The translations under genes and the position numbers were made by a program. A stretch of 64,000 nt of DNA, from assembly GCA_050952525.1 (NCBI GenBank), contig JBMNLC010000004.1, positions 102,437 through 166,436 on the forward strand, given 5' to 3'. Under the pieces are notes generated by a model. That model did no database searches. It was not told the DNA's origin and saw only the letters and a program-made list of their open reading frames with translations. Within the stretch, counting starts at the first letter, position 1. Every line of letters starts with the position of its first letter. This document shows positions 8,134-51,577 of the stretch, piece by piece. This stretch comes from Clostridia bacterium. GTDB taxonomy: Bacteria; Bacillota; Clostridia; Christensenellales; JBMNLC01.

Positions 8134-8823
8134 ATGCTAAGCGTGAAAGATTTGGCGAAGATGATTGATCATTCCCTGCTGAGACCGGAACTGACCGTTG
8201 ATCAGGTAAGAGAAGGTTGCAGGCTTGCAAAGAAATATGGTACGGCATCGGTGTGTGTGAGGCCTTGTGATGTAGCCATTGCCAAAGAGGAACTGGAAGG
8301 CACTGATGTTTTGGTCACAACAGTTATTGGTTTTCCCCTCGGGGACAATACAACGGAAGTCAAGGTGTTTGAAACCGAACAAGCCATACGGGACGGAGCC
8401 CAAGAAGTGGATATGGTTTTAAATATTGGCAGACTTATCTCTCGTGACTTTGATTACGTGGAAAAGGATATTAAAGCCGTGGTAGATCTAGCCCATCAGA
8501 ATGGGGTCCTTGTCAAGGTCATTCTGGAGAATTGTTATTTGACCGATGACTTGAAAGAAGCTGCGTGCAGAATATCTGAAAAAGCGGGAGCAGATTTTGT
8601 TAAGACATCTACTGGCTTTGGTACAGGGGGTGCAACGGTCGAGGACATCAGACTAATGCGAAAAAACTGCAGCCCCAAAGTGAAGATAAAAGCTGCAGGT
8701 GGTATTCGAACTTATGACGCCGCACTGGCTGTATGGAAAGAAGGCGCAGTGCGATTGGGAGCAACCGCCACCAAGGCTATTCTTGAGGAAGCCAAAAAGA
8801 GAGAAGAGCTAGGGGGACAATGA
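8134..8823 (+). CDS. deoC: Deoxyribose-phosphate aldolase
   Basis: ORF 8047..8823. GGAGG RBS then ATG at 8134. IDHSLLRP, VCV.P and the Schiff-base lysine context ADFVKTSTGF are DeoC hallmarks. Confidence 0.85.
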   Translation: MLSVKDLAKMIDHSLLRPELTVDQVREGCRLAKKYGTASVCVRPCDVAIAKEELEGTDVLVTTVIGFPLGDNTTEVKVFETEQAIRDGAQEVDMVLNIGRLISRDFDYVEKDIKAVVDLAHQNGVLVKVILENCYLTDDLKEAACRISEKAGADFVKTSTGFGTGGATVEDIRLMRKNCSPKVKIKAAGGIRTYDAALAVWKEGAVRLGATATKAILEEAKKREELGGQ

Positions 8824-34646: not shown

Positions 34647-35736
34647 ATGAAAAAGTTGAGAATCGGCATCATAGGAACGGGTGGTATCGCCAACGCTCAT
34701 GTAAATGCTTACAAGAATTTTCCGGATGTAGAGGTCGTTGCAGGAGCGGACATTGTTCCGGGTAAGGCGGCAGCCTTTTTGGAACGCCACGGACTTCACG
34801 AGGCAAAGGCTTTTGAGAGGCATGAGGATTTATTGGAGATGGATTTGGATGCAGTCAGTGTATGTACATACAACTCCACCCATGCCATATGTACCATTGA
34901 TGCATTAAATGCAGGAAAGCATGTTCTACTTGAAAAACCTATGTCCATTACACTGGATGAAGCAGTGGAGATGGTACGTACGGAGAAAAAAACAGGAAAG
35001 ATACTTACTATTGGCTTTCAACCTCGATATGATGCAAACATGCAAATGATTAAAGAAATCATTCAATCGGGCATGTTGGGGAAGGTTTATTATGTCCAGA
35101 CCGGTGGGGGAAGGCGAAGAGGGATACCGGGAGGAACTTTTATCTCGAAGGAATTAGCAGGAGTTGGAGCTCTGGCGGATATTGGTTGTTATTCTCTGGA
35201 TATGGCATTGAACTCCCTTGGCTATCCCAAGCCTTTAACAGTTTCAGCCTATGCATCCAATTACTTTCGGAACCAACCCCAAGTATTACAAGGAAGCAGG
35301 AAGTTTTGAAGTAGATGATTTTTCGGCTGCATTCATTCGTTTGGAGGGGGATGTAGTTCTAGATTTTAAGATCTCCTGGGCTATGCATATGGATACCATG
35401 GGTGATACGATCTTTCTCGGCCAGGATGCTGGTTTGAAGGTGAAATCCCCGCGGTTGGGACACCCCTGGGGTGGCGCCTGGGATGGAGGGGTAGGCCCCA
35501 TCTCCTTCTTCCACGATGTGATGGGACAGCAGGTGGAAACTGGCATTCCTCTGAAGGAGACAACGGGTCCCAGCCTATTTGAAAGGAAGGTAAGGGACTT
35601 CGTAGATGCCGTGATTGATCATAAGCCTGCACCTATACCCACCGATCAGATCCTTTATAATCAGGCTATTATAGATGGAATTATTCGATCGGCGGCTTTA
35701 CGACGTGAAGTGGAAGTGAGAATTCCGGAGATTTAG
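34647..35736 (+). pseudogene. Gfo/Idh/MocA oxidoreductase, one frameshift
   Basis: The N-terminal 220 aa (ORF 34647..35309; LRIGIIGTGGIA, LLEKP) continue in the +1 frame as ORF 35251..35736. The junction is near TACTTTCGG (35263-35270); removing one T restores ...SNYFGTNPKYY... Confidence 0.7.
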
Positions 35737-35757
35737 GCACTTTCGTTGAAAAAATAG

Positions 35758-35800
35758 GAAGGCCATAGGGATAAAAAAGCACCCCTATGGCCTTCTTATT
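35758..35800 (+). terminator. Terminator of the eight-gene operon
   Basis: 13-bp stem GAAGGCCATAGGG / CCCTATGGCCTTC, T-poor tail. Confidence 0.65.
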
Positions 35801-35856
35801 GCTGATAGCCTTAAGTTGGATGCTTCAGATTTTACACCAGATGATCCGATAATGAA

Positions 35857-36120
35857 ATGGCAAACCAAATCCATATGCTTCAATCCGCTTTAGCAGGTGC
35901 AGAGCGTATATTTAAGGTGATGGACCAGGAGCCGGAATATAAGGATGAGGCTGTGAAGCCTGAAATCCGGGACATGGAAGGAGCTGCTAATTTCAATGAT
36001 GTAACCTTCGGTTACAAAAAGGATACCCCGGTACTAAAGGATGTTGACAAAGGCTTTATTCTGTCGACGGAAAAGATATATGAGCTATATACCAGCCAGT
36101 TCAAACGGCAGGCATCTTGA
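35857..36120 (+). pseudogene. Remnant of an ABC exporter (fused TMD-NBD type) with an internal deletion
   Basis: 87 aa. LQSALAGAERIFKVMDQEPE...VTFGYKKDTPVLKDV is the TMD/NBD junction, joined directly to a C-terminal tail (...YELYTSQF...). Walker A, signature and Walker B are absent. Confidence 0.6.
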
Positions 36121-36215
36121 GGGTAGGCAAGGACACATTGAAGAATATGGAAGGGAAATAAATCTCTGATGGGATATATAAACTTCGGATTTTTATTTTA
36201 TTTCCACATTTAGGG

Positions 36216-36245
36216 TTGACGCGTACTAAATCAGAGCGTTATAAT
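36216..36245 (+). promoter_or_regulatory. Promoter of the LacI-family gene
   Basis: TTGACG (36216-36221), 18-nt spacer, TATAAT (36240-36245). The -35 overlaps a TTGACGCGT half-site. Confidence 0.55.
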
Positions 36246-36253
36246 AAAAACAA

Positions 36254-36267
36254 AGATTGACACGCGT
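36254..36267. promoter_or_regulatory. Putative LacI-type operator copy
   Basis: The reverse complement AAAACGCGTGTCAA matches the 37396 palindrome at 11/14 positions. Confidence 0.4.
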
Positions 36268-36282
36268 TTTTTGAGGAAACAT

Positions 36283-37340
36283 ATGAAGAATAAACCGAAA
36301 AAAGTAACACGAAATGATATTGCCCGTTTAGCGGGTGTTGCCCCTTCAACGGTATCCAATGTGTTGAATAATAAAAGGGTAAGCGATAAATTAAGGAACA
36401 GGGTACTGCAAGCTATTGAGGAATTGGATTATACACCGAATTTGGTTGCTCGGAGTCTGGTGACAAAATCATCAAAGCATATTGAATTGATTATTACGGA
36501 TATCACCAATCCTAATTTCGCAGCTATTGCGGAAGGAATGCAGATGGAAGCCCATAGGTTTGGTTATATGCTGTCCATCAGCCTGAGTAATGAGAATGAG
36601 ATGGACCAGTTGGTGGATTCATGTGTCGGCAGGAATGTGGATGCAGTGGTGTTCTTATTTTGCTATGATGCCTTCCACGATCGACTTAAAAGAGCGCCTG
36701 CTAAACAATGATATTATTGTTGTCGATATCCACAATCGTTATGTTTTTCCTCAAGTTGCTCCCCATATCCGTGTGGAACCGGGTTATATGGAGGGAATGA
36801 AAAAGGCTTTCAAGCATTTGGTGGATTTGGGCCACAAAAGGATTGCTTATGTAACGGCTGAAGGAGGCGAAATGGAGAAAGGCTTCTTTCGTGAATCCCG
36901 GGCAGAGATCTTCAGGCAGTGTTCTATCCAATACTTTGGACAGTTTGATGAGAAATACATGATTACCAATTCAGGGATAAAAGGATAACCATATGATCGG
37001 TTTACATGCCGGAAAGGAACTAATGCATCGCGACTTGGACTGTACTGCCGCCATCGTGGTTAGTGACAGCCTGGTATTCGGCTTCATGAAAGCCCTCCGA
37101 GATGCAGGGAAGTCCGTTCCAAAGGATTTGTCGGTGGTCAGCTTTGGAAACACCCCTTTCGCCCAGACCAGCAACCCCACCCTGACCTCCGTGACAATAC
37201 CTACCCATGAAATAGGGGAGACCATTGTCAGGTATATAATGGGCTATAAGGACAGAGTGGAGGAAATGAAGGAGACCATTCAAATGGATTTCCCTGTAGA
37301 TGTTGTCAGCAGGGAGTCTACGGGAATGCCTCGTTATTAA
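36283..37340 (+). pseudogene. LacI-family transcriptional regulator, two frameshifts
   Basis: HTH TRNDIARLAGVAPSTVSNVLNN in frame 1 (to 36711), sugar-binding core in frame 2 (to 36988), C-terminus in frame 3 (36993..37340). The second shift lies in an A4 run (36979-36982). Confidence 0.8.
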
Positions 37341-37395
37341 GACAATGGGCATCATGTCATGGCCGAGAGAGGCCCACTTTTTTATATATCATATT

Positions 37396-37409
37396 TTGAC
37401 GCGTGTCAA
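37396..37409. promoter_or_regulatory. Putative LacI-type operator (near-palindrome TTGACGCGTGTCAA)
   Basis: 12/14 self-complementary, CG-centred, and overlapping a TTGACG -35-like hexamer upstream of the solute-binding-protein gene. Confidence 0.5.
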
Positions 37410-37557
37410 AGATTTTTAATATCAGACCGCCTCTGTTGATCATCGGAAAGATGGAATATAACCAAACCTTTCGATCTATTGGTTGGCCCCTTAGCCAAGG
37501 TAGTAAGGATGGGTTTGGATTATATAATGATAACATATTTATGAGGAGGGGTCTAAT

Positions 37558-39517
37558 ATGAAAAAAGTATCAATCATGTTATTGTCACTGCTATTCCTCA
37601 CTGTTGCCATTTTAGTAGGCTGTAGCAACAAGCCTGTGGTTGGACCTACTGTGGCTCCTGAGGATAGTCAAGCCCCTGTGGAGAGCGAGACGCCGGCAGA
37701 GAGCCAGGCTCCGGAAGAATCAAAAGCCCCTGAAAAAATGGTCTATAAGCAGTCTCCTTTTCTCGAGGGGAAGGGATTACCCCCTGTGGAAGAACGCTTA
37801 CCCAAGGAACCTAAGATTACCAATGAAATGCCTGATGAACTACTGGATTATGAAATCGGTACATACGGCGGTACCATCCGGTCTGCCAATAGCTCCATTG
37901 ATTATAATCCCAATCTTTTCGTTATGAACAACGAGCCGCATGATAAATACACCCGGTATCCTAGGTGAAGAAATTACTCCAAATATTGTCAAGGGTTTTG
38001 AAGTAACACCTGACCAGAAGGAGTTCACTTTCTATATGCGGGAGGGGCTGAAGTGGTCTGATGGTCAGCCCGTCACGACAGAAGATGTGCGGTTTGCTGT
38101 CGAGGACGTGCTGTATAATGAAAAACTGACCCCCGGCATACCTGCATGGTTAAGATCTGGAGGAACAGCCTCCGGAACTCCTGTGGCTTTGGAGGTTATA
38201 GACGATTTCACCTTCAAACTTGAAATTTGACGAGCCCTATGGAGGCTTCCTGGTTCGTCTGGCCATTCAGGGCTGGAGAGGCTATACCGAGTCTATTAAA
38301 GCCAGCCCATTTCCTAAAGGATTACCATGAGAAATATGCAGATGCCGATGAATTAAAGGAAAAAACGAAAGAAGCGGGCTTCAATGAGGAAGAGTGGTGG
38401 AACCTGTTTAACGACAAGGATATCCTGAATAACGAGCTGGTAAGCTCTAAAGCTATAGGCTTTCCTGTTTTGTATCCCTGGATGGCTGTGAACAAGACAG
38501 AAACATCGGTGGAATTTGAACGGAATCCTTATTATTTCAAGGTGGACCCGGAAGGCAACCAACTGCCGTATGTCGACAAGCTGGTTAACAACCTGGTGGA
38601 AAACATGGAAGTAGTGACCATGAAAATCCTTACGGGGGAAATAGACTTTGCCTACGGCATGTTGACCTCCATGCCTAAGATTCCCTTGTACAAGGAGAAT
38701 GAGGATAAGGGTGGATATAATATCTATATGACCAAATATCACACAACGCCTACCGATATCCATTTAAACCTAACCTATGAAGATCCTGTATGGAGAGAGG
38801 TTGTCCAGGATATCCGGTTCAGGAACGGCCCTGAACATGGCTATCGATCGGGAGGAAATCATAGATGCCGTATATTATGGTTTCGGTGAGCCAGGTAAAA
38901 TCATTGACAGCACCTTTAATCTGGAAGAGGCGAATAAGCTGTTGGATGAAATGGGGATGACAAGGGGAAGTGACGGTTTCCGAGTAGGTCCTGACGGTAA
39001 GAAATTCACCATTCCTTTTGAAATCGGAGGTCAGGTAGTGGATATGGCACCCGTCACAGAACTGGTGGTGGAGCAGTGGAGAGCTCTGGACCTGGATGTA
39101 ACCATGAAGATGATTGATGCTGCCCTCTGGGGTACCCGTAATTCTGCTAATGAACTCCAGGCTACTGTTATGTTTACCCATACACCTCTATGGTATCAGG
39201 GCGATTTCGGACAACAGCTCTGGGGTCCATTCTGGCATCGGTATCATACTTCAGGAGGAAAGCAGGGCGAAAAACCTCCTGCAGATGTCCAGAAGATGTA
39301 TGATTTGATCGACAAATCGTCCGTTGTTTCACCCGATGAGGGACGGAAGTTGATTGAGGAAGTAAAGAGTGAAATCGGGGAGAACGTCTGGTATTTCATA
39401 TGGGCGGAGAATGTAAGGCAGCCCTTTATCGCTAAGAAGAATCTTGGCAATATGTCAGACAAAGGTTTCTCCATCGCATGCGGATTCAGCGGCGAACAGT
39501 TTTTCTACAGAGATTAA
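37558..39517 (+). pseudogene. ABC-transporter substrate-binding lipoprotein (family-5-like), four frameshifts
   Basis: Lipobox LLFLTVAILVGCSN. The reading frame hops 1>2 (~37938), 2>3 (~38224), 3>1 (~38290) and 1>2 (~38822). Each hop is repaired by deleting one nucleotide. No cognate permease or ATPase genes are adjacent. Confidence 0.8.
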
Positions 39518-39724
39518 CCGGCGACTGAAACAAAGGGACGCAAAGATAAAGATATGATAGGGATAATATCAGTATGGCAGCTGGGTATATGCTTTGAAAG
39601 ACATGATGTTATCCCTTATCTTTTCTTGTTTTACTGGAATTCTGAATTCTGGGGTTTCTCCTTAAAAGGAGGCGATGGATCCCGAAGATGTCATGTCAGA
39701 TTACTGAAAGAAAGAAGGGATAAG

Positions 39725-41251
39725 ATGAAGCGCCCCAATATCGTTTTTGTATTCGCAGATCAGATGAGGGCAAGTGCCCTGGGCTGCTTAGGCATAGAAC
39801 ATGTCAAAACTTCAAATTTAGACAGGCTGGCCAAGGAAGGAACCCTTTTTACACGAGCCGTATCCAACTATCCGGTCTGCTGTCCTGCGCGGGCTACCTT
39901 ACTGACGGGATTACACAGTCAGAACCATGGCCTTGTAACCAATGATCAGCAGCTTCGAACGGACTTGCCGACCATTGCTCATTATCTAAATAAGGCCGGT
40001 TACAGATGTGGATACATTGGAAAGTGGCATGTTGATTGTGTCGACCGGGGAGCCTATATACCTCTCGGTTCAAGGAGAAGGGGATTTGACGACCTTTGGG
40101 CTGTGAATAACTGCAACCATGCATATATGAATAGCTATTATTATTTGAATGACTGTGAGGAACCAATCTGGATTGAAGGATATGAACCCGAGGCGCAAAC
40201 GGATATCGCTGTAGATTATATTGAAAAGAAAACACAAAAAAATGATCCTTTTTCTCTTTTTCTTTCCTGGGGGCCTCCCCATTGTCCATATAAAATGGTT
40301 CCGCAGGAATACCTGGATATGTATCCTCCGGAGGAAATTGAATTAAAGCCGAACGCTGTAGATACGGCAGACAAAAGCATTATTGCGGGATATTATGCCC
40401 ATATTACAGCCTTGGATGATTGCATGGGCAGGATACTGGAGACAATCGATCGATGCGGTATAAGGGAGAATACAATAGTGATCTGTACATCAGACCATGG
40501 TGACATGCTTTTTTCCCATAACCGTGGCTGGAAGATGAAGCCATGGGCTGAATCGGTTCATATCCCTTTTGTCGTCCGTTGGCCCCATAAAATCCCTGCA
40601 GGCAGATACTGCACCAGCCCTATAGGGCTGGTCGATGTGATGCCTACTTTATTGGGATTGGTTGGATTGGAAGTGCCTGATCATGTGGATGGGAGTGATT
40701 TGTCACAGCTATTTATGGGCAAAACCTCAAAGGGGCCCAGATCCCAATTTATCTACAATATCATCGGTTATAAGGGCTGGTCTGACGGCTACAATGAATG
40801 GAGAGGAGTTGTTACGGGAACCCATACGTATGTTCGATTGCGAGACAGGGCTTGGCTCCTGTTTCACGATGAGAAGGATCCATATCAGTTGAATAATCTC
40901 GTTGATGACCATCACTATACAGGACTAAAAGAAGAAATGGAGGCAGAATTGCAAAAGCATCTTGATGCGGTCAATGATCCTTTCCCTTCATCCGATGAGG
41001 CTGTTGAAAAATATGTGGTAGGGAAAGTGATTGTTTCGGACGATAAAGAAGAGCTGATATCCTCCATCGTACGTGAATATAGGACTGTTCATCATTCTGA
41101 TCCGGATGTGGATGAGCTAAGCGCCTTTCTGCCCTTCCGACCCGATGAAAGACGCTTTGTAAGATTCTTTGAAAATCAGAAGATTGTCAATGGTAAGAAG
41201 GGTGTAGGAAGAAAGCTGTTTCATAGGGATTTTTTTAACAAGACGCTATAA
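39725..41251 (+). CDS. Cys-type sulfatase
   Basis: ORF 39554..41251; start taken as MKRPNIVFVFADQMR. Formylglycine motif C-C-P-A-R (VCCPARATLLTG), GKWH, TSDHGD. Confidence 0.85.
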   Translation: MKRPNIVFVFADQMRASALGCLGIEHVKTSNLDRLAKEGTLFTRAVSNYPVCCPARATLLTGLHSQNHGLVTNDQQLRTDLPTIAHYLNKAGYRCGYIGKWHVDCVDRGAYIPLGSRRRGFDDLWAVNNCNHAYMNSYYYLNDCEEPIWIEGYEPEAQTDIAVDYIEKKTQKNDPFSLFLSWGPPHCPYKMVPQEYLDMYPPEEIELKPNAVDTADKSIIAGYYAHITALDDCMGRILETIDRCGIRENTIVICTSDHGDMLFSHNRGWKMKPWAESVHIPFVVRWPHKIPAGRYCTSPIGLVDVMPTLLGLVGLEVPDHVDGSDLSQLFMGKTSKGPRSQFIYNIIGYKGWSDGYNEWRGVVTGTHTYVRLRDRAWLLFHDEKDPYQLNNLVDDHHYTGLKEEMEAELQKHLDAVNDPFPSSDEAVEKYVVGKVIVSDDKEELISSIVREYRTVHHSDPDVDELSAFLPFRPDERRFVRFFENQKIVNGKKGVGRKLFHRDFFNKTL

Positions 41252-41499
41252 ATTCTGGCAATTACGGATTAGAACAATTGCAGGGTTACCCACAGAGAAT
41301 ATCCCGGAATCCGGTTTTCCGCTTCAATCCTATCTGTCAAAATCAAATTATAGTATATGAAGGCTTTTTGCCGATCTATGTAGTAAAATAAAACTGTGTC
41401 AGAAAAAGATATGAACATGCTGATAAGGGGGCAGTACCATATGATATCTGCCACGGCAAGCATATTGCCCCTGTCAGCTTGGTGGAAGGAGAGGATCAG

Positions 41500-42887
41500 A
41501 TGAAGCTCAAACAGAATCCCAATATCCTGTTTTTATTTTCGGACCAGCACCGATGGTGTGATCTGGGCTGCTATGGCAATGATCAGATTATCTCACCCAA
41601 TCTGGATGCCTTTGCCCAAAAGGCGATCCGGTTTAACAATTGTATTTCCAATTCACCTGTTTGTGTTCCTGCCCGGGGATCCTTGCTGACGGGGCTTTTC
41701 CCTTTAAGACATGGCGCCGTGTCCAATGACCTTCCTATGAGAAAGGATGTGGAAAGTATTTCCCATGTCCTGGCCCGAGAGGGCTATCACACTGGCTATA
41801 TAGGAAAATGGCACCTGGCGGGTATTCCAAGGGATCAGTATATTCCAGAAGGAAAGGGACGATTTGGTTTCAAGGAATGGAAGGTTGCAAACTGCAACCA
41901 CGATTATATGAATGCCTATTATTATGATGAGGAAAACAACCGCGGATAGATATTGACGGATATGAACCCATTGAACAAACCAATCTGGCTGTCGATTACA
42001 TTCATCGCAATAGCGGTAGGAACCCTTGGTTTTTGGTATTGTCCTGGGGTCCTCCCCATGACCCTTATCATCAAGTGCCTCAAAAGTATCTGGATATGTA
42101 CAGGGATATCGATATGAAACTCCGTCCCAATGTACCGGAGCTGATTCGTACCGGATCCAGCCGAACCATGAAACGGGAAGATATCGTACGGAACTACCGG
42201 GGATATTATGCCCATATCACTGCCCTGGATGAACAATTCGGCAGGCTTATGGCTGTCCTGGTGGAGACAGGCGAGATAGACAACACCATTGTTGTATATA
42301 CCAGTGATCATGGTGATATGCTGGGCAGCCAGGGAACAACCAATAAACAGTGGGCGTATGAGGAATCCATTAAGGTTCCTCTCATCGTGTACTGGAAGGG
42401 GAAGACCATCCAGACATCCAGTGATGAGTTGATCGGTCTTGTGGATCTGCCCGTCAGTTTGCTGGACTTGCTAGGACTCCGTTTTTCCGGAAACGTGGAT
42501 GGAAAAGACCTTCATGAGCTTTTCATAAATCCGGATGCAAAGGGCTTGGAAGAATGCTATATTTTTGATCATATTCCATGTCATCAGGCTTTTTTCAGAG
42601 GAAGCAGTGAATGGAGAGGAATCAGGACGAGACGTTATACATATGCCCGTACTGCAGCGGATGATGGCTATATGCTGTACGATAATTTAGAGGACCCTTA
42701 TCAGATGGTCAATCGAATCAATGACCCGGACTATGAGCAAATAAAGAAAGATCTGAAGGAAAAGCTGAACGAGTATATTCAAAAGCACGACAAGCTTCTT
42801 CCGTGGCAGGATTTTATCAAGGAATTCGGCTTGAAGGATGAATGGAATCGAAGCCAGACTTATTTCAAACTTCCCCTGTTGGAGTGA
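41500..42887 (+). pseudogene. Cys-type sulfatase paralog, one frameshift
   Basis: MKLKQNPNILFLFSDQHR, C-V-P-A-R motif, GKWH in frame 1 (to 41949). SWGPPHDPY...TSDHGD continues in frame 3. The junction is at AACCGCGGATA (41938-41948), where an extra CG dinucleotide (or a 1-nt loss) breaks ...EENNRIDIDGYEP... Confidence 0.8.
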
Positions 42888-42929
42888 CTTGACGTTTTAA
42901 GGGGAATGTCCATCAGGTTAAAGGATTGC

Positions 42930-42969
42930 AGAGCTGTAGGATGAATCCACAGCTCTTTCTTTTTCTTTT
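42930..42969 (+). terminator. Rho-independent terminator
   Basis: AGAGCTGT / ACAGCTCT stem followed by TTCTTTTTCTTTT. Confidence 0.8.
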
Positions 42970-43360
42970 CATCATGGCCAATAGAAAACCCTGGTAATGT
43001 GATATAATGAAGTTGATATATAGCATGTTTCCGGCAGATTGCCGGAAGAGACGGAAAAGATGGGGGATATGGATGGGAATGTATGTGGATTGGCTGGTAC
43101 GAGAACAGAGCAAATGCCCCATCCCATATGAAATTGCCATGTCACCGGGTGGCCAGGCAAGAAAGGCATCTTTGCACCCCATTATGTTTTCGGCGGCAGG
43201 GAGATACAAAGAGCATTATTGGAAAAGGAAGGGATCCCTTTTTTGGAGGACGAATCCATTAATATGGAGGCACACCAATGGCATTCGGATGGATTTCCCG
43301 CTACTGGGGAACCTTAAAAACAGATCAAACAATAGTGCCGGTATGTAAGGATGTGAATGT

Positions 43361-50349: not shown

Positions 50350-51577
50350 ATGACAAGTATTGATATTTTAAGTATGGAGAGCAGAAGGTGTTTTGATTTT
50401 TTTTGCAGGAAGTGAATCTTGACAAGAACAGCCCAGGCTATGGGCTGATACGTGACAGAGCTCCATCCAGTCCGGAAATTGCCAGCATAGCGTCCGTGGG
50501 TTTTGGTTTAACAGCCATTCCCATCGGTGTGGAGAGGGGATGGATCACCAGGAGACAAGGATATGAAAGGGCATTGAGTACTCTCAAAACTCTCTTATAT
50601 CAAACTGAACAGCTGAATGGTTTTTTCTATCATTTTATGGACATTCGTACCGGAAAAAGGGCAATGAAAAGCGAGCTATCCGTCATCGATACAGCTATTG
50701 CCATTTGTGGAGCCATCACAGCGGGAGAATATTTTGGTCAAGGGGTTAAAGAGTTGGCTGAAATACTGTACAGGCGTGTTCAGTGGGGCTGGTACAGGGA
50801 TCCCCGAAGAAATCAATTTTATATGGCTATACTCCAGAAGAAGGTTTTTCGGGATGGTGGGATTTTTATGCAGAACAATTGATCATGTATATTCTGGGAG
50901 CTGCCTCTCCTACTCATGCGGTAGGAGGAGATATGTTTTACAGCTTTGTAAGACAGTATAACTGCGATGGACATCATCTCTCTTTTATCTATTCATGGTA
51001 TGGCTCCCTCTTCACCCACCAGTTTTCCCATGCTTGGCTTGATATGAGAAATAAAGTCGATGGGGTGGGTGCGGATTGGTGGGAAAATTCCATAGCGGCT
51101 TCCAAATCCAATTACCTGTTCTGTGTGGAGCAAGGTGAAAAATACAAAAGCTTGGGGCCATTTTCCTGGGGACTGACGGCTTGCGACGGTCCATGGGGTT
51201 ACAATAGACGATATGGAGCGGCACCATCAGGTCTTTATGACAATGAACATGTGGTGGATGGGACTGTTCCTCCCTGCGGAGCCGCAGGTTCAATCGTCTT
51301 TGTCCCCCAGGAGTCCCTGTCAGCCCTTCAATATTATTATGAGCAATACCCTGAACTGTGGGGGAAATATAGTTTTGCGGACGCATTTAATATTGATGTT
51401 TCACCTAACTGGTTTAGTAGAGATGTCATCGGGATAAATAAGGGCATCACCCTCTTGATGGTTGAAAACTATCGGACAGGATTTGTATGGAGCTATTTTA
51501 TGAAAAATCGCTATGTACAGCGAGGATTGAAGAAGGTAGGAATAATAGAAACGATCAGGGAGCCGATCATTGCCTAG
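50350..51577 (+). pseudogene. Glucoamylase-like / GH144-type (beta-1,2-glucanase-like) protein, two frameshifts
   Basis: ATG at 50350 (MTSIDILSMESRRCFDFF) runs into a T8 tract (50397-50404) and continues in ORF 50403..50882. A second shift near 50815-50830 joins ORF 50783..51577. The family call rests on FYHFMD, WDFYAEQLIMYILG, SWGLTACDGP and GINKGITLLMVEN. Confidence 0.65.

Follow-up and report, generated by a model that had tools for sequence, protein, structure and literature searches.

In Trypanosoma brucei Lister 427, a collapsed-haplotype (mosaic consensus) assembly contains erroneous insertions and deletions (indels) along with apparent frameshifts (Cosentino, Brink and Siegel, 2021; PMC8445201). 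Allelic variants that lie close together shift the homology, reads become misaligned, and the resulting consensus indels truncate open reading frames (ORFs), which are restored by phasing (PMC8445201). Here, we analyze a cluster of frame breaks in a 64,000-nucleotide stretch of DNA from Clostridia bacterium (NCBI GenBank assembly GCA_050952525.1, contig JBMNLC010000004.1, positions 102,437 to 166,436 of the forward strand), hereafter referred to as the window. An original prediction, made from the sequence alone, had counted ten frame breaks in five genes of the window and had taken their clustering as a sign of genuine pseudogenization of a glycan-utilization locus; the possibility that it did not consider is a non-uniform assembly error caused by collapsed haplotypes in a strain-variable tract. 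We report that eight of these lesions, located at 35268-41941 in the genes for a Gfo/Idh/MocA oxidoreductase (Gfo), a LacI-family regulator, a family-5 solute-binding lipoprotein (SBP), and the second of two sulfatases (sulfatase-2), are very probably artifacts of a collapsed-haplotype consensus or of its polishing rather than mutations. This assignment is based on their being private to one assembly, on their composition as blends of two alleles, and on their confinement to a variable tract. The remaining two frameshifts and a deletion scar are genuine, ordinary pseudogene lesions.

Results

Frame breaks and their intact counterparts

The genes concerned, like the other features of the window described here, lie on the plus strand. 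At the cluster, the ORF map consists of short overlapping plus-strand ORFs that Pfam orders as consecutive parts of single families; the large flanking genes and the gene for the first sulfatase (sulfatase-1; 39554..41251) read through intact. Base-level comparison with related contigs revealed a single lesion in the Gfo gene (34647..35736; Pfam GFO_IDH_MocA pieces at 34647-35309 and 35251-35736), an additional C at 35268, and two in the gene for the LacI-family regulator (36283..37340; LacI/Peripla_BP_3 pieces at 36271-36711, 36590-36988, and 36993-37340), where a G has been added at 36694 and another at 36983. The SBP gene (37558..39517; SBP_bac_5 in four pieces) is interrupted by one extra base each at 37938-40, 38219-22, 38291-93, and 38822-26. 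Sulfatase-2 (41500..42887; Pfam Sulfatase pieces at 41479-41949 and 42033-42887) carries two additional bases at 41940-41 (AACAA[CC]GCGG). Together with two breaks in a GH144-like gene, all ten of the predicted frame breaks are present, each within about 20 nt of where it had been placed, and the tally can be extended by an extra intergenic base at 36222 and by nine within 37350-37554.

Full ORFs were restored once the extra bases were deleted from the window. The repaired Gfo protein is identical to a protein (P0013) present in three JGI contigs, and the repaired sulfatase-2 protein equals a Logan protein of 461 amino acids (P0040), a full-length intact copy of which is found on an SRR31066034 contig. 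Neither version of the repaired recombinant SBP, nor the repaired LacI protein, gave an exact match in the protein collection, which leaves the intact recombinant allele of the window type a putative one.

The broken ORFs correspond to the GenBank proteins MGI6705677-MGI6705686, labeled 'MAG: Clostridia bacterium' (MAG, metagenome-assembled genome), with locus tags from ACOX6S_05275 onward on one contig of 363,847 bp. An exact-protein look-up in a collection of 15 billion proteins found them to be private to this NCBI MAG, with no second assembly possessing them; the N-terminal Gfo fragment gave no record in the exact look-up. Intact counterparts of the broken genes are present in JGI, Logan, and NCBI contigs. 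We inspected the lesion sites in sister and other-haplotype contigs (L001, L002, L003, L020, L021, L022, and L023-L027). Such a comparison of sister loci had been proposed at the outset as a way of judging the lesions, and it separates them: those of the GH144-like gene recur, but the eight others are absent from the sister contigs, and none of these eight recurs in an independent assembly.

The near-identical contigs available for comparison derive from the JGI metagenomes 3300053716, 3300061563, and 3300064082 and from the Logan assemblies SRR31065934, SRR31066034, and SRR31066337; sulfatase-1, which is identical in the JGI contigs, served as the anchor for fetching sister loci. Throughout 9518-34700 and 39000-64000 (about 50 kb), the window and the independent contigs are 99.98-100% identical, with 0-3 single-nucleotide polymorphisms (SNPs) per contig and no indels other than that at 41940 and, in contig L013, a gap of one nucleotide located 8 nt from its end. 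All remaining differences lie within 35129-38938. The lesions are thus clustered as claimed, and this level of identity, with indels lacking outside the tract except at 41940, excludes uniform sequencing error as their source, as the original prediction had argued. Further searches added little: a scan of genome contigs with sulfatase-1 gave a sole, irrelevant archaeal match at 20% identity, a protein scan of metagenome contigs with the repaired SBP gave nothing beyond relatives at 45-55% identity (L015-L018), and a DNA pattern around 37940 had no matches in metagenome contigs, the pattern having contained a window-specific SNP.

Two alleles of a 4-kb cassette

All private single-base insertions fall within a tract at 34800..38938 (plus strand) in which the window is 96-100% identical to another lineage, here called lineage B, except for a 200-nt junction bin (37000-37199) with 92% identity. 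Lineage B is represented by contigs L023 (Logan SRR21487928), L025 (NCBI GCA_040364295.1, JBEFFF010001965.1), and L026 (JGI 3300065571); it shares about 87% average nucleotide identity with the lineage of the window, and on either side of the tract its identity to the window is only 74-90%. A native allele, 7-12% divergent, is present in a population whose sequence otherwise equals that of the window (100% identity). It consists of contig L027 (Gfo and the 5' part of LacI, 88-91% identical to the window), which abuts contig L002 (the 3' part of LacI and SBP, about 93% identical) at 36979. The native (L027 and L002) and the imported-type (L021) alleles both occur in the JGI sample 3300061563, so that divergent alleles co-exist at this tract within a sampled population; we infer the same co-occurrence for the sample from which the MAG itself was derived. 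Contigs from three samples break at the edges of the tract. Contig L014 begins at 38939, L020 stops at 36219, and the boundary between L027 and L002 falls at 36979, and these breaks in and around the tract show that its strain heterogeneity is real.

Within the SBP gene, the window carries B-type bases at about 139 informative SNPs as far as 38938, and bases of its own lineage (A type) from 38962 onward. The right crossover, at 38938-38962, is accordingly clean. Since the edge of contig L014 falls exactly at 38939, the recombinant junction would seem to be a real polymorphism that is also captured by independent Illumina data. The repaired SBP gene of the window differs from the native allele by transition-rich changes with a third-position (period-3) pattern. 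Compared with the other alleles, it has a synonymous divergence (dS) of 0.37-0.41 in the tract and a ratio of nonsynonymous to synonymous divergence (dN/dS) of 0.05-0.08. This ratio, suggested in the original prediction as a check on pseudogenization, speaks against it, and the SBP allele of the window evolved as a functional gene under strong purifying selection. The genes of the cassette are intact wherever they are covered in lineages B and C (L023, L024, L025, and L026) and in the native haplotype. We therefore regard the tract as what is, by all appearances, an ordinary inter-lineage recombination import of a functional cassette of about 4 kb that comprises Gfo, an ABC-exporter remnant, LacI, and SBP.

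At least three haplotypes can be distinguished in the lineage of the window: the native one, a partial import that reaches to about 37160 (L001), and the full import that reaches to 38938 (the window). A third lineage (L024) also matches the 5' part of LacI (36400-36900) at about 100% identity. At the left junction of the B-type segment (37079-37278), the sequence switches several times between A and B type within 200 nt, and this region holds the sole private substitution (a C at 37154); it could reflect a true crossover zone of mosaic structure or a consensus that is chimeric. In L001, seemingly private SNPs in Gfo (window positions 35129 and 35132) are native-allele bases at a further homology-shifting site, and they reflect a small patch of conversion or, alternatively, blended alleles in the L001 assembly as well. 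The SBP gene has no neighboring permease or ATPase genes in any lineage (window, L023, L024, and L025), though its dN/dS is about 0.05; its transporter partners are presumably encoded elsewhere.

The insertions combine bases of both alleles

Each insertion that we tested coincides with a pair of closely spaced SNPs between the two alleles, which can be aligned alternatively as an insertion together with a deletion. At these homology-shifting sites, the window keeps the bases of both alleles; e.g., GAGT-TA and GA-TCTA become GAGTCTA. In the Gfo gene (35268), TACTTTGG in the backbone and TATTTCGG in the native allele correspond to TACTTTCGG in the window; the equivalent sequences in LacI (36694) are, in the same order, AAAAGACGC, AAAAAGCGT, and AAAAGAGCGC. 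The four sites in the SBP gene follow the same rule. At 37938, the alleles GCCCATG and GCCGCTG are merged into GCCGCATG; at 38220, AAACTTAAA and AAATTGAAA yield AAACTTGAAA; at 38291, CGATCTA and CGAGTTA yield CGAGTCTA; and at 38824, CAGGAAGG and CAGAACGG yield CAGGAACGG. The k-mer cores with which the window spans its blend sites are TACTTTCGGAAC, GACGCGTACT, AAAAGAGCGCC, AAAAGGATAAC, GAGCCGCATGAT, AAACTTGAAATT, ACCGAGTCTATT, TTCAGGAACGGCC, and AACAACCGCGGAT.

Potential blend sites were enumerated from the allele pairs alone, blind to the window, in 3,166 nt of comparable coding sequence. Only 13 of the 9,411 distinct single-base insertions possible in this sequence (0.14%) produce a blend, and all six of the strictly testable coding frameshifts (one in Gfo, one in LacI, and four in SBP) are found among these 13 (P ~7e-18). 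Bases of the other allele are also carried at sites outside this strict test. The extra C at 36222, located between genes, turns the backbone GACGGTAC and the native allele GACGCTGTA into GACGCGTAC, and at 36983 the native allele possesses one additional codon, reading ..CAGGAAAAC.. at this position. Compared with lineage B, the LacI-SBP intergenic region (37341..37557) of the window contains nine additional bases (at 37350, 37356, 37363-64, 37367, 37423, 37429, and 37553-54), which mostly match the A-type allele (e.g., GGCAT, GGCCGAGAGAGG, ATATCA, and ACCG). The two additional bases at 41940-41 in sulfatase-2 read as an A-type backbone plus a B-type CC.

When the contigs closest to the window (L021 and L023) are taken as the backbone, 18 extra bases can be counted in the window: four in the coding sequences of Gfo and LacI, one at 36222, nine in the LacI-SBP spacer, and four in SBP. 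Private deletions are lacking (the one deletion that we observed is not private), and 37154 is the only private substitution in 34700-43000. The original prediction had placed several lesions within short A/T runs. The inserted G and C bases interrupt the sequence beside such runs without extending them, unlike a phase-variable or slippage-prone homopolymer frameshift, in which the repeat itself would change in length.

Other sources of single-base additions were considered as well. By eye, no shared methylation-type motif or restriction-site pattern was seen at the insertion sites. A codon-boundary pattern is present at some sites only and is explained by the third-position SNPs of the other allele. 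We rejected a diversity-generating retroelement or error-prone reverse transcription, as the substitutions are transition-rich, follow a period-3 pattern, and are not adenine-specific, and we likewise dismissed single-nucleotide additions of the kind left by non-homologous end joining, as both the sites and the bases are dictated by the other allele.

Genuine lesions in the neighborhood

Two of the ten frame breaks reside in the GH144-like (PF10091) pseudogene (50350..51577; pieces of the PF10091 'glucoamylase' family at 50403-50882 and 50783-51577). One G is missing at about 50405 (TGG to TG), just after the T8 run and not inside it, and another is missing in the motif ATGGGC at about 50825; these are the sole losses within short G runs among the ten lesions. 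Both are identical in L001, L010, L011, and L014, which shows that they are real and fixed in the lineage. All three pieces of the gene (50350 onward) can be aligned, in three frames, to the intact 409-amino-acid ortholog of lineage B (P0062), and the two longer ORF pieces match both 8xul_A, contiguously at residues 66-200 and 205-475, and 5gzh (E 1e-10 to 1e-33). Together with a PF10091 score of 2.7e-64, these alignments show homology of 50350-51577 to the GH144 endo-beta-1,2-glucanase family across the whole catalytic domain.

The ORF of 87 amino acids at 35857..36120, predicted to be a remnant of an ABC exporter, can be aligned to the ABC exporter TM_0288 at residues 314-375, with a weak, non-significant stretch also at residues 583-591. 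This alignment bears out the prediction and identifies the ORF as the remnant of a type-B exporter that has lost its membrane domain and the greater part of its ATPase domain. The same ORF is present in sister contigs of the A lineage, and shorter variants (42-81 amino acids) occur in other contigs; it is a real and old deletion scar. The claim that all other genes of the window are intact had overlooked the remains of two genes, one for a MatE efflux protein and one MGMT-like (DNA_binding_1), at 42884..43290, situated between sulfatase-2 and an RNase T gene. The MatE remnant comprises residues 1-66, with stop codons, plus residues 508-520, and it lies beside the broken MGMT-like gene. Lineage B possesses intact copies of both (L023, 8688-10688), and the deletions are real, being common to L001 and L014.

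Sulfatase-2 is also disrupted in sister strains. In L001 (12387-12399) and in L014, a 13-bp tandem duplication (two copies of CAAGCGGATAGAT) is found at the same site as the two additional bases of the window, whereas in L002 and L003 the position equivalent to 41940 shows no disruption; the duplication, present in two independent sister assemblies, marks a genuine polymorphic pseudogene. The SBP gene of L001 has a private 1-bp deletion at codon ~46 (L001 at about 8140-8150, window at about 37690; GTGCCGCCG to GTGCGCCG), which uncouples the lipoprotein signal peptide, the gene being called as 591 amino acids. Its occurrence in a single assembly, at another homology-shifting double SNP, raises the possibility of an artifact of the same kind. 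With its single-base losses in G runs, its kb-scale deletions, and its 13-bp duplication, all shared by independent assemblies, the spectrum of genuine erosion in this neighborhood is quite unlike that of the private insertions of the window. In contig L025 (19463-21956), the lineage B ortholog of lacZ (GH2) is called as two pieces of 473 and 597 amino acids, possibly through a frameshift or an assembly error in that MAG.

Discussion

Our data suggest the following course of events. The source population would contain two or more alleles of the ~4-kb cassette with a divergence of 7-12%, one native and one nearly identical to lineage B, the latter pointing to a past inter-lineage recombination. 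The consensus of the MAG would track the imported-type allele and, at homology-shifting double SNPs, would keep the bases of both alleles, so that one base is gained and the reading frame is broken; the two additional bases in sulfatase-2 would arise likewise. The insertions would then stem from a software step, and no single DNA molecule would carry them. We prefer such a blended consensus because the predictions of neutral decay, i.e., the presence of substitutions, deletions at least as frequent as insertions, and positions independent of the other allele, all fail; a consensus assembled from two mixed haplotypes, in contrast, predicts the pattern observed. Consistent with it, the errors are limited to the heterogeneous tract while the rest of the window is accurate over about 50 kb, with 41940 as the exception.

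Genuine pseudogenization private to this strain, in which a dispensable locus gained eight independent frameshifts in Gfo, LacI, SBP, and sulfatase-2, would fit a neighborhood where real decay shared with sister strains is evident in the GH144-like gene, the ABC-exporter remnant, and the MatE and MGMT-like remnants, where the sulfatase-2 gene of L001 and L014 has suffered its 13-bp duplication and the SBP gene of L001 has lost a base, and where no permease genes accompany the SBP gene in a window that is otherwise free of errors. We nevertheless consider this scenario improbable. The mutational spectrum of bacterial pseudogenes is biased toward deletions and rich in substitutions, as reportedly described by, e.g., Mira, Ochman and Moran in 2001; the window has at least ten private insertions versus about one private substitution and no private deletions, and a dN/dS of 0.05-0.08 gives no hint of relaxed constraint. 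Moreover, the flanks are 100% identical to those of the sister contigs, which leaves no time for eight neutral mutations within 4 kb. The six testable insertions all belong to the 0.14% that blend two alleles, and the resulting protein fragments are missing from every other assembly. Genuine pseudogenization of the locus thus stands for the GH144-like gene, the ABC-exporter remnant, and the sulfatase-2 duplication of sister strains and falls for the eight lesions at 35268-41941. The step from clustering to genuineness made in the original prediction does not hold either, given lesions that are private, consist of insertions only, sit at blend sites, are accompanied by about one private substitution, and affect genes with such a low dN/dS.

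Two further explanations strike us as very improbable. The insertions could be real scars of recombination, formed when the double mismatches in the heteroduplex of the lineage B import gave rise to two single-base loops, each of which was retained by repair, leaving a superstring of both alleles that is longer by one base. Such a process would account for the blend sequences and for their restriction to the imported tract, and the junction at 38938/38939 is apparently present in an independent Illumina assembly, where contig L014 ends. Mismatch-repair tracts, however, are strand-directed and extend over hundreds of nucleotides, so that loops 1-3 nt apart are expected to be corrected to the same strand, and unrepaired heteroduplex segregates into pure alleles. 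That more than ten sites should all have gained a base and none lost one is likewise unexpected, and the process would have destroyed four genes under strong purifying selection at once; if true, it would constitute a previously undescribed frameshift signature by which recombination inactivates imported genes. Random or platform-typical sequencing error, e.g., homopolymer miscalls in a stretch of low coverage, is rendered just as doubtful by the data. Several lesions adjoin A/T runs and coverage in MAGs can be locally low, but the inserted G and C bases do not lengthen the adjacent runs, deletions and random substitutions are lacking, the other allele fully determines both positions and bases, and about 50 kb elsewhere are free of such indels.

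Several observations weigh against the interpretation of the eight lesions as products of a blended consensus. In a genome with 46% GC, G or C accounts for 17 of the 18 bases gained in the tract and for the two at 41940-41, a bias that the blend model does not predict and that may reflect the consensus tool. Just six of the 13 candidate blend sites are affected. Site 41940 lies outside the variable tract, where the lineages differ by about 12%, and it is the sole blended site there. The heterogeneity at the lesion sites is deduced from contigs rather than from reads, and we can name no assembler or polisher step that would retain the insertions while dropping the compensating deletions. Finally, because the independent contigs come from other samples and assemblies, a truly private set of mutations is formally possible.

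Taken at face value, the cluster would signify a rapid and targeted decay of a locus for the utilization of sulfated glycans; the evidence indicates instead that it is mostly an assembly artifact. In real organisms, the Gfo oxidoreductase, LacI, and SBP genes are intact and under purifying selection, and the same probably holds for sulfatase-2. The residual biology is ordinary: about 4 kb imported by recombination between lineages, plus a few accessory genes that are genuine pseudogenes. Since consensus errors concentrate in strain-variable tracts, the clustering of frameshifts is no argument against assembly error in MAGs, and the two-allele superstring test provides a simple diagnostic that requires no reads when sister contigs are available.

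How does this locus compare with known systems? Ordinary bacterial pseudogenes in accessory carbohydrate-utilization loci are matched by the single-base losses in the GH144-like gene, the deletions in the ABC-exporter and MatE remnants, and the sulfatase-2 duplication of sister strains, all of which recur across assemblies; the eight lesions of the window in Gfo, LacI, SBP, and sulfatase-2 differ from them in being private, insertion-only allele blends. The mosaic alleles left by homologous-recombination imports are recognizable in the B-like tract amid flanks of 74-90% identity, the clean right crossover, and the transition-rich, period-3 divergence; such an import accounts for the substitutions and for the strain variability of the tract, but not for the single-base insertions. 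The assembly of T. brucei Lister 427 (PMC8445201) differs from the present case in that its alleles reside on diploid homologous chromosomes, whereas those studied here belong to co-existing strains of a metagenome (native versus imported 4-kb cassette), and in that the indels are attributed to misaligned reads there, while the blending is deduced from contigs here. The likeness lies in the signature itself: every testable frameshift of the window falls on a double-SNP site, and the removal of one base mends the ORF.

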